Of a stretch of 30,981 bases of DNA, positions 4,204 through 5,255 are shown piece after piece; position 1 is the first letter of the stretch, and each line of letters starts with the position of its first letter. The position numbers and the translations under genes were made by a program. Under the pieces are notes generated by a model, which was not told the origin of the DNA, ran no database searches, and saw only the letters and a list, made by a program, of their open reading frames with translations. This DNA is from Escherichia coli (GTDB lineage: Bacteria > Pseudomonadota > Gammaproteobacteria > Enterobacterales > Enterobacteriaceae): NCBI RefSeq assembly GCF_003334355.1, contig NZ_QOWP01000038.1; one strand, 5' to 3'.

Positions 4204-5163
4204 GTGGCACAACGAGATTATGTACGCCGCAGCCAACCGGCACCTTCGCGGCGAAAAAAGAGCACCTCACGGAAAAAGCAACGAAATCTGCCTGCGGTTT
4301 CTCCCGCTATGGTCGCTATTGCTGCCGCCGTTCTTGTGACCTTTATCGGTGGTCTGTACTTCATTACGCATCACAAGAAAGAAGAGTCCGAGACGCTGCA
4401 AAGCCAGAAAGTGACCGGAAACGGACTACCACCAAAACCAGAAGAACGCTGGCGCTACATTAAAGAGCTGGAAAGTCGCCAGCCGGGAGTGCGTGCGCCC
4501 ACAGAACCTTCTGCCGGTGGTGAAGTGAAAACGCCGGAGCAACTGACACCTGAACAACGTCAGCTTCTTGAACAAATGCAGGCTGATATGCGCCAGCAGC
4601 CAACGCAGCTGGTTGAAGTTCCTTGGAATGAACAGACGCCGGAACAGCGTCAGCAAACGCTACAGCGCCAACGTCAGGCGCAGCAATTAGCGGAACAGCA
4701 ACGCCTGGCTCAGCAGTCGCGTACGGCTGAACAAAGCTGGCAGCAGCAGACGCGTACGTCGCAAGCCGCGCCGGTACAGGCGCAACCGCGCCAGTCTAAA
4801 CCGGCTTCTACTCAGCAGCCGTACCAGGATCTGCTGCAAACTCCTGCGCACACGACTGCGCAGTCGAAGCCGCAGCAAGCTGCGCCAGTTGCTCGTGCCG
4901 CTGACGCGCCAAAACCGACGGCGGAGAAAAAAGACGAACGCCGCTGGATGGTGCAGTGCGGTTCGTTCAGAGGCGCGGAACAGGCAGAGACGGTACGTGC
5001 TCAGCTGGCGTTCGAAGGCTTTGACTCGAAAATCACCACCAACAATGGCTGGAATCGTGTGGTCATTGGCCCGGTGAAAGGCAAAGAGAACGCAGACAGC
5101 ACCCTCAATCGGTTGAAGATGGCGGGTCATACAAACTGCATTCGGCTCGCCGCCGGGGGTTGA
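4204..5163 (+). CDS. ftsN: Cell division protein FtsN
   Basis: 319 aa, GTG start; single N-terminal TM segment, long Gln/Glu/Pro-rich linker, C-terminal SPOR domain (WMVQCGSF...VVIGPVKGKENADSTLNRLK). Confidence 0.95.
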   Translation: MAQRDYVRRSQPAPSRRKKSTSRKKQRNLPAVSPAMVAIAAAVLVTFIGGLYFITHHKKEESETLQSQKVTGNGLPPKPEERWRYIKELESRQPGVRAPTEPSAGGEVKTPEQLTPEQRQLLEQMQADMRQQPTQLVEVPWNEQTPEQRQQTLQRQRQAQQLAEQQRLAQQSRTAEQSWQQQTRTSQAAPVQAQPRQSKPASTQQPYQDLLQTPAHTTAQSKPQQAAPVARAADAPKPTAEKKDERRWMVQCGSFRGAEQAETVRAQLAFEGFDSKITTNNGWNRVVIGPVKGKENADSTLNRLKMAGHTNCIRLAAGG

Positions 5164-5187
5164 AACCCTCAAAATCCCCCCCATCTA
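5160..5187 (+). promoter_or_regulatory. Sigma-32 heat-shock promoter of hslVU
   Basis: TTGAAA at 5160-5165 and CCCCATCTA at 5179-5187 with 13 bp spacer, matching the sigma-32 consensus (TTGAAA / CCCCATnT) directly upstream of hslV. Confidence 0.6.
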
Positions 5188-5255
5188 TAATTGCATTATG
5201 CCCCGTACTTTTGTACGGGGTTTGTACTCTGTATTCGTAACCAAGGGGTCAGCTC

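Follow-up and report, generated by a model that had tools for sequence, protein, structure and literature searches.

The interval between ftsN and hslV in the Escherichia coli chromosome raises two questions: which promoter drives the operon of the heat-shock protease HslVU, and what is the role of the inverted repeat that follows this promoter. Here, the locus was analysed within a window of 30,981 nucleotides, meaning the whole stretch of DNA under study. The genes cytR (3081-4112, RefSeq annotation), ftsN (4204-5163, open reading frame and E. coli RefSeq annotation), hslV (5256-5786, with a GTG start) and hslU (5796-7127), the latter two from open reading frames and RefSeq annotation, are all on the + strand, and so are menA and rraA in the RefSeq annotation of the window. 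Positions in strain MG1655 (g) and in the window (w) were related by g = 4127543 - w, and the segment 5100-5300 is identical to the MG1655 sequence. A piece of 601 bases around the element was found in 5426 of 5426 complete E. coli genomes, with an identity of at least 99% in 5270 of them.

The original prediction placed a sigma-32 promoter in this interval, consisting of TTGAAA at 5160-5165 and CCCCATCTA at 5179-5187 with a spacer of 13 nt, and this description proved to be exact to the base. The -35 hexamer TTGAAA (5160-5165, + strand) occupies positions -35 to -30 relative to the transcription start A5195 described below. In the -10 region CCCCATCTA (5179-5187, + strand), the part CCCCATCT (5179-5186) corresponds to positions -16 to -9, and the spacer covers 5166-5178. 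Sigma-32 promoters were defined by a -35 box TTGAA(A) and a -10 box CCCCATNT at a distance of 13-14 nt, a definition that includes the arrangement TTGAAA-13 nt-CCCCATCT found here. When both strands of the 30,981-base window were searched with TTGAAA-N13/14-CCCCATNT, this was the single match, and the pattern was absent from 100 out of 100 dinucleotide-preserving shuffles.

Conservation was examined in 80 orthologous loci retrieved with HslV. The strict pattern used for these loci was TTGAAA-13/14-CCC[C/A]A[A/T/C]NT, and near-consensus -10 boxes were also admitted. The promoter boxes were present in 75 of the 80 loci by the strict pattern and in 78 by the relaxed one, from Escherichia to Photobacterium and with Grimontia included, and they are conserved across the Enterobacterales. 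Experimental evidence comes from reporter fusions and Northern blots, in which hslVU was heat-induced and its expression was lost in rpoH, but not in rpoS, mutants, a double mutant being included (Lien 2009, PMC2681174). In the same study, a C-to-T mutant of the -10 box (CCTCATCT) showed lower expression, and heat induction was abolished (PMC2681174). Thus, with a spacing like that of dnaK P1, conservation in the Enterobacterales, rpoH dependence and the effect of the -10 mutant, the predicted element is identified as the heat-shock promoter through which sigma-32 (RpoH) directs the hslVU (clpQY) operon.

The palindrome behind the promoter had been assigned to the 5' UTR, which would not hold if transcription started downstream of it. 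In SMRT-Cappable-seq, i.e. the sequencing of capped full-length primary transcripts, an hslV-hslU unit was recorded in two conditions at NC_000913.3 4120362-4122348 on the reverse strand (PMC6131387, supplementary file 3). Position 4122348 corresponds to A5195 in the window (+ strand), which gives a leader of 61 nt. This start lies 8 nt after CCCCATCT, compared with 7 nt in dnaK P1, and five nucleotides ahead of the base of the hairpin. The mapped start is therefore upstream of the hairpin, and the assignment to the 5' UTR stands.

A different start is found in the literature. Lien 2009 puts it 71 nt upstream of the GTG, i.e. at about position 5185, and the '71-nt' construct of that work begins accordingly (PMC2681174). 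Such a start would fall inside CCCCATCT, 10 nt from the start obtained by Cappable-seq, and CCCCATCT cannot serve as -10 box and as start at the same time. In their supplements, Kim 2012 and Cho 2014 give neither the gene names nor any coordinates near this site, and SMRT-Cappable-seq gave the sole coordinate found. Our best value is 5195, give or take a few nucleotides. This value conflicts with the 71 nt of the literature and corresponds to normal sigma-32 geometry. The conflict between a 71-nt and a 61-nt leader also bears on how the stabilising mechanism discussed below is interpreted.

The distance between the two promoter boxes is set by a mutable homopolymer, namely a run of seven C (5176-5182, + strand) that reaches from the last bases of the spacer into the -10 box. 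Heat-evolved BM28 has lost 2 bp of this run (PMC10044804). In a rescue study at 43 C, a 1-bp deletion annotated as hslV/ftsN (-74/+19), corresponding to position 5182, was fixed in two populations, and many loss-of-function alleles of hslVU were obtained besides (PMC7750951). A natural C6 allele is carried by strain RM9873-C1. The C7 run is repeatedly targeted in adaptation to heat, and as its deletions appeared in two independent evolution studies, they provide in vivo evidence for the importance of the box spacing.

The sigma-32 -10 box is also overlapped by a perfect TATAAT (5186-5191, + strand). Its distance of 20 nt from TTGAAA is too long for sigma-70, and the loss of two C would leave a spacer of 18 nt. 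The C7 run is thus only 2 bp short of making a TTGAAA-18-TATAAT sigma-70 promoter, and a stronger sigma-70 promoter was predicted after the 2-bp deletion (PMC10044804). In the wild-type sequence, a scan of 4900-5500 for sigma-70 promoters made no call. A separate wild-type sigma-70 promoter was rejected, because TATAAT 5186-5191 is without a -35 partner at 16-18 nt.

Turning to the palindrome, a repeat finder returned a sole inverted repeat in 5140-5270, with arms of 8 nt that are 100% complementary and 4 nt between them. These parts are CCCCGTAC (5201-5208), TTTT (5209-5212) and GTACGGGG (5213-5220), so that the perfect hairpin expected at about 5201-5220 exists at exactly these coordinates, with a stem of 8 bp and a 4-nt loop. 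RNA folding adds the pair G5200-U5221. The leader RNA hairpin therefore extends over 5200-5221 (+ strand), with a 9-bp stem (G5200-U5221 plus CCCCGTAC/GTACGGGG), of which 6 bp are G-C, and a UUUU loop. Its folding energy is -17.0 kcal/mol (z = -5.5), and none of 200 shuffles was equally stable. The stem is preceded by five unpaired nucleotides, AUUAU (5195-5199). The rest of the leader (5222-5255, + strand) carries the Shine-Dalgarno sequence AAGGGG (5243-5248), located 7 nt before the GTG.

A search of Rfam gave a match to RF02401 ('ClpQY_promoter') at 5201-5258, with 63.6 bits against a gathering threshold of 42 (E = 3e-11) and covering the full model (positions 1-57 of 57). Its 3' end coincides with the GTG start codon of hslV (5256-5258), and the match thus lies directly upstream of hslV, as expected for this family. 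RF02401, the clpQY/hslVU 5' UTR stem-loop (Lien 2009, Open Microbiol J 3:29), is the same element, i.e. a hairpin followed by a conserved leader up to the GTG. The 20-nt inverted repeat CCCCGTACTTTTGTACGGGG quoted in that study is identical (PMC2681174). The leader block AAGGGGTC..C.CGTG, conserved to at least 90% in an alignment of 40 sequences, falls within the Rfam model. A further, weak Rfam match to anti-hemB scored 15.5 bits where 49.5 are required and was rejected as a generic GC hairpin with a T tail. Promoter and leader hairpin are therefore already known, from the experiments of Lien 2009 and as the curated family RF02401. The original prediction had rightly labelled the element as known housekeeping regulation, and the value of the present result lies mainly in a correct annotation.

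The Rfam model exceeds its threshold in only 8 of 20 sampled genera. Hairpins at the equivalent position score below it where the stem is longer (Rahnella, Photorhabdus, Xenorhabdus, Proteus) or smaller (Vibrionaceae). Covariation was assessed in 40 aligned orthologous leaders, for which RNAalifold recovered the same 9-bp helix. In this helix, 95.5% of the cells are paired, 8 of the 9 pairs have changed on both sides, and 55 cells are doubly changed. None of these measures was reached in any of 500 column shuffles, and sliding the helix by 1-3 columns left 38-53% paired.

A palindromic stem might function as DNA or in the RNA of either strand, and for this reason the asymmetry of wobble pairs was used to decide between these cases. 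Among the 40 orthologues, 21 cells are G·U or U·G on the sense strand, compared with 0 cells of A·C or C·A, which would represent wobble on the other strand. This asymmetry shows that selection acts on the sense RNA. It also weighs against a role of the palindrome on the opposite strand, where it could be the terminator or 3' end of an antisense RNA that is transcribed out of hslV in the direction of ftsN. A 3' end of this kind was recorded by Term-seq at MG1655 4122347 on the + strand, i.e. at position 5196 on the minus strand of the window and antisense to ftsN (Adams 2021), which is 5 nt past the hairpin when read in antisense. However, its score is low (1381, where two neighbouring rows reach 20168 and 100650), a U-tract is missing from the antisense tail CAUAAUGC, and stem evolution keeps the pairing on the sense RNA only. 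Lying just 1 nt away from the 5' end of the sense RNA (5195), this 3' end may represent exonuclease trimming to the stable stem or a library artefact. Overall, we regard an antisense function as highly improbable.

For the sense RNA, 79 leaders were folded, each beginning at the base that corresponds to A5195 of E. coli. In 61 of them, the distance between the predicted 5' end and the first hairpin is 4-7 nt (median over all 79 leaders, 5), with leader lengths of 45-173 nt and hairpin sizes of 14-84 nt. The conserved feature is a stable stem near the 5' end, and not the sequence of the stem or the loop.

The function of this stem was addressed experimentally. Less mRNA and less HslV protein were made after deletion of 40 bp of the leader, of the inverted repeat (delta-IR) or of most of the leader (delta-L), and the delta-IR mRNA decayed faster after rifampicin (Lien 2009, PMC2681174). 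Function was lost with S-IR, a substitution that unzips the stem, and was restored with R-IR, which has a different sequence and an equally stable stem; the paper also remarks that neither an RNase E nor an RNase III motif is obvious (PMC2681174). A role as mRNA stabiliser was thus shown by Lien 2009, with the structure of the stem, and not its sequence, being needed for mRNA level and stability.

It had been suggested that the hairpin modulates either mRNA stability or translation. The former is borne out by the work of Lien 2009, whereas the latter found no support, as 21 nt separate the stem from the Shine-Dalgarno sequence. Control of translation would mean an RNA thermometer or sequestration of the Shine-Dalgarno sequence, and a related reading would have a protein or sRNA bind the hairpin specifically. 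The heat induction of the operon would fit a thermometer, and the consensus fold does contain a weak helix of 3-4 bp between the Shine-Dalgarno GGGG and the bases just before the GTG. This small helix, however, shows one-sided changes only and none that are compensatory, and no pairing connects the main stem (5200-5221) with the Shine-Dalgarno sequence at 5243-5248. At 42 C, a stem of -17 kcal/mol would stay closed. Neither the loop nor the stem is conserved in sequence, with only structure and position being kept, which argues against sequence-specific recognition. Unpublished observations mentioned in Lien 2009 point in the same direction, with no thermosensitive segment and no effect of Hfq (PMC2681174). 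Based on geometry, stem stability and the unconserved loop, the thermometer, sequestration and specific-ligand readings were rejected as extremely improbable.

Altogether, we consider it very likely that the locus is explained by a sigma-32 promoter, a start at about A5195 and a leader hairpin that acts as a 5'-proximal stabiliser on the sense RNA. In this scheme, sigma-32 RNA polymerase recognises TTGAAA (5160-5165) and CCCCATCT (5179-5186) and initiates near A5195. The hslVU message opens with 27 nt made up of five unpaired bases and the 9-bp, GC-rich hairpin 5200-5221. With the hairpin intact, the hslVU mRNA decays slowly, whereas its deletion or unzipping leads to faster decay and less HslV. 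The most likely route of stabilisation would be a hindrance of the 5'-end-dependent attack of RNase E, by 5' sensing or by scanning, after RppH, as in the ompA and papA leaders.

According to what Belasco's work is said to have established, a protective 5'-terminal stem-loop tolerates about 2-4 unpaired 5' nucleotides. The five unpaired nucleotides of the E. coli hslVU leader would be at or above this limit. In the published pBAD33 constructs, the hairpin is presumably preceded by the vector leader and 17 native nucleotides. Because the hairpin would then not be 5'-terminal and is nevertheless stabilising, an internal obstacle to RNase E scanning would fit at least as well as protection of the end. 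For these constructs, inserts that start near position 5183 of the window (primer F5) were cloned into pBAD33 at its KpnI site (Lien 2009, PMC2681174).

The stabilising hairpin also has to be seen in relation to the upstream gene. The ftsN stop codon TGA (5161-5163) is embedded in the -35 box TTGAAA, a geometry that is unchanged in 67 of the 80 orthologous loci. As the stop codon lies within the hslV -35 box, there is no room for a terminator belonging to ftsN alone, and the leader hairpin, beginning 38 nt past the stop codon, is the first structure after ftsN. This overlap raises the question of whether one hairpin serves two transcripts, which is the residue of our analysis that is new, and only mildly so. 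The same stem-loop could be a leaky intrinsic terminator or a 3'-end protector for the cytR-ftsN and ftsN transcripts, in addition to its role as stabiliser. Such dual use is possible, although we would hold it rather doubtful.

By SMRT-Cappable-seq, a cytR-ftsN unit (by gene name) stops behind ftsN, and read-through in the form of an ftsN-hslV-hslU unit was recorded for the same region (PMC6131387). The read-through transcripts speak against the terminator role, and in Term-seq under three growth conditions no sense-strand 3' end was assigned to ftsN or hslV (Adams 2021). A tail with 5 or more T among 8 positions follows the stem in 24 of the 40 orthologues, and a T run of four or more is found in 10 (e.g. 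Tatumella, Pantoea, Dickeya). The E. coli tail (UUUGUACU / TTGTACTC), on the other hand, has 4 T of 8, which is short of a U-tract, and the terminator scan made no call. Moreover, an efficient terminator would abort the sigma-32 transcripts about 30 nt after their start, which is opposite to the measured positive effect of the hairpin.

In the case of the Vibrionaceae, ftsN ends 51-84 nt before the -35 box in four loci. A canonical terminator stands ahead of the promoter in three of these four loci (L071, L074, L077), whose leader hairpin has -4.6 to -8.2 kcal/mol, and the leader hairpin is weak in all four. This would favour dual use, although the contrast between Vibrionaceae and Enterobacterales amounts essentially to one phylogenetic comparison. 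In its full form, the proposal starts from the ftsN stop codon being placed within the hslV -35 box throughout the Enterobacterales and would have the stem-loop shared by two consecutive units, as leaky terminator or 3' protector of cytR-ftsN and as 5' stabiliser of hslVU, with an attenuation of the heat-shock transcripts in the genera having a full T-tract. We consider this version unlikely.

When compared with known systems, the hslVU promoter follows the sigma-32 pattern closely. In dnaK P1, the sigma-32 scaffold of a cryo-EM structure, the order is TTGAAG-13 nt-CCCCATTT-7 nt-+1 (PMC10216364), and in hslVU it is TTGAAA-13 nt-CCCCATCT-8 nt-A5195, with the same 13-nt gap. Canonical sigma-32 promoters and hslVU thus share TTGAA(A/G), this gap, the CCCCATNT box and a start 7-8 nt further on. 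Unlike the consensus, hslVU has a G instead of a C before TTGAAA. It further differs from canonical sigma-32 promoters in that the stop codon of ftsN, the essential gene upstream, falls within its -35 box and in that a perfect TATAAT overlaps its -10 box.

The hairpin resembles intrinsic terminators in having a GC-rich stem of 8-9 bp and a 4-nt loop just after a stop codon, with a T-rich tail in some genera. It is unlike them in that its E. coli tail is not a U-tract and that it is located behind a promoter whose transcripts must cross it.

The stabilising 5' stem-loops of ompA and papA are reportedly those described by Emory & Belasco 1990, Emory, Bouvet & Belasco 1992 and Bricker & Belasco 1999. 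These stabilisers were also cited by Lien 2009 (PMC2681174). In common with them, the hslVU leader has a stable hairpin near the 5' end, whose structure and not its sequence prolongs the life of the mRNA. In contrast to them, hslVU is of unrelated sequence, carries five unpaired 5' nucleotides, and its hairpin is internal in the published constructs.

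The promoter of hslVU overlaps the end of ftsN. Among the 80 orthologous loci compared upstream of hslV (L002-L081), 67 have the TGA that terminates ftsN placed inside the -35 hexamer of the sigma-32 promoter (window 5160-5165), with identical geometry in each of these species. In the case of Vibrionaceae and Alteromonadales, the -35 box is found 18-84 nt downstream of the ftsN end, and three Photobacterium loci show a separate canonical terminator between ftsN and this box. At the other end of the region, a strongly conserved AAGGGGTCTGC(T/C)C block directly precedes the hslV start codon, which is GTG in 75/80 species (window 5256-5258); Edwardsiella, Moellerella, Proteus and Morganella use ATG, and Candidatus Gullanella has TTG. 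As a separate observation, about eight tandem TCGCCTC heptamers were detected directly 5' of the hslV promoter region in Vibrio sp. Hep-1b-8 (L079, roughly positions 1371-1425, some 130-75 nt upstream of hslV).

Between the two sigma-32 boxes lies a run of seven C residues (C7, window 5176-5182), and this run is a recurrent mutation target. It was shortened by a 2-bp deletion in the heat-evolved strain BM28 (PMC10044804), and a 1-bp deletion within it went to fixation in two rescue populations at 43 °C (PMC7750951). Additionally, a C6 allele occurs naturally in strain RM9873-C1. Judged by the sequence, the loss of two C residues would leave TTGAAA spaced by 18 nt from a perfect TATAAT (window 5186-5191), a spacing that would give rise to a near-consensus sigma-70 promoter.

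Regarding the transcripts around the leader hairpin (window 5200-5221), two lengths have been described for the hslVU leader: 71 nt, starting inside the -10 box at window 5185 (Lien et al. 2009, PMC2681174), and 61 nt, starting at window 5195 according to SMRT-Cappable-seq (PMC6131387). This difference implies that the stability constructs of Lien et al. carry promoter bases as well as vector leader 5' of the hairpin. On the minus strand, Term-seq places an antisense 3' end at window 5196, corresponding to MG1655 4122347 on the + strand (Adams 2021). Only 1 nt separates this end from the start site of the sense transcript, and it is situated 5 nt past the palindrome that forms the hairpin. Either a genuine trimmed antisense RNA or a library artefact echoing the sense 5' end could account for it.

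As to the wider surroundings, the window is colinear with K-12 up to about 21199, with 99.37% identity over 265-21199, and its first 264 bases (1-264) did not align with their expected K-12 counterpart on the yiiX side. The remainder (21200-30981) consists of the late and tail module of a P2-like prophage, with genes for tape measure, sheath, gpD, tail fibre assembly and a recombinase. Its junction corresponds to MG1655 ~4106344, inside the cpxQ/cpxP 3' end, and coverage of 80% or more of this prophage part is seen in no more than 110 of the 5426 E. coli genomes. The 111-nt hslVU element shows an identity of 99% or more in 5291/5426 E. coli genomes. Rare natural variants of the hairpin do occur within the species: in IAI39 the 5' arm is short by one C, leaving a 7-bp stem, and in P13-6 the 3' arm carries an A-to-T substitution that introduces one mismatch.

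Across genera, enlarged hairpins of 34-68 nt (15-23 bp) with an unchanged 5' offset occur in Serratia, Rahnella, Siccibacter, Mangrovibacter, Photorhabdus and Xenorhabdus (L018, L024, L029, L032, L035, L039, L042, L046, L050, L052, L063, L067 and L068). When compared with known RNA families, the only further Rfam match at gathering threshold in the window, beside the hairpin model RF02401 (ClpQY_promoter), was the L31 ribosomal-protein leader upstream of rpmE (RF03157, 537-589, minus strand, 60.1 bits). Among 20 loci sampled, RF02401 itself scored above threshold in only eight; both sampled Serratia loci (L018 and L024) matched, and the small Vibrionaceae hairpins and all remaining enlarged ones of the sample fell below it.
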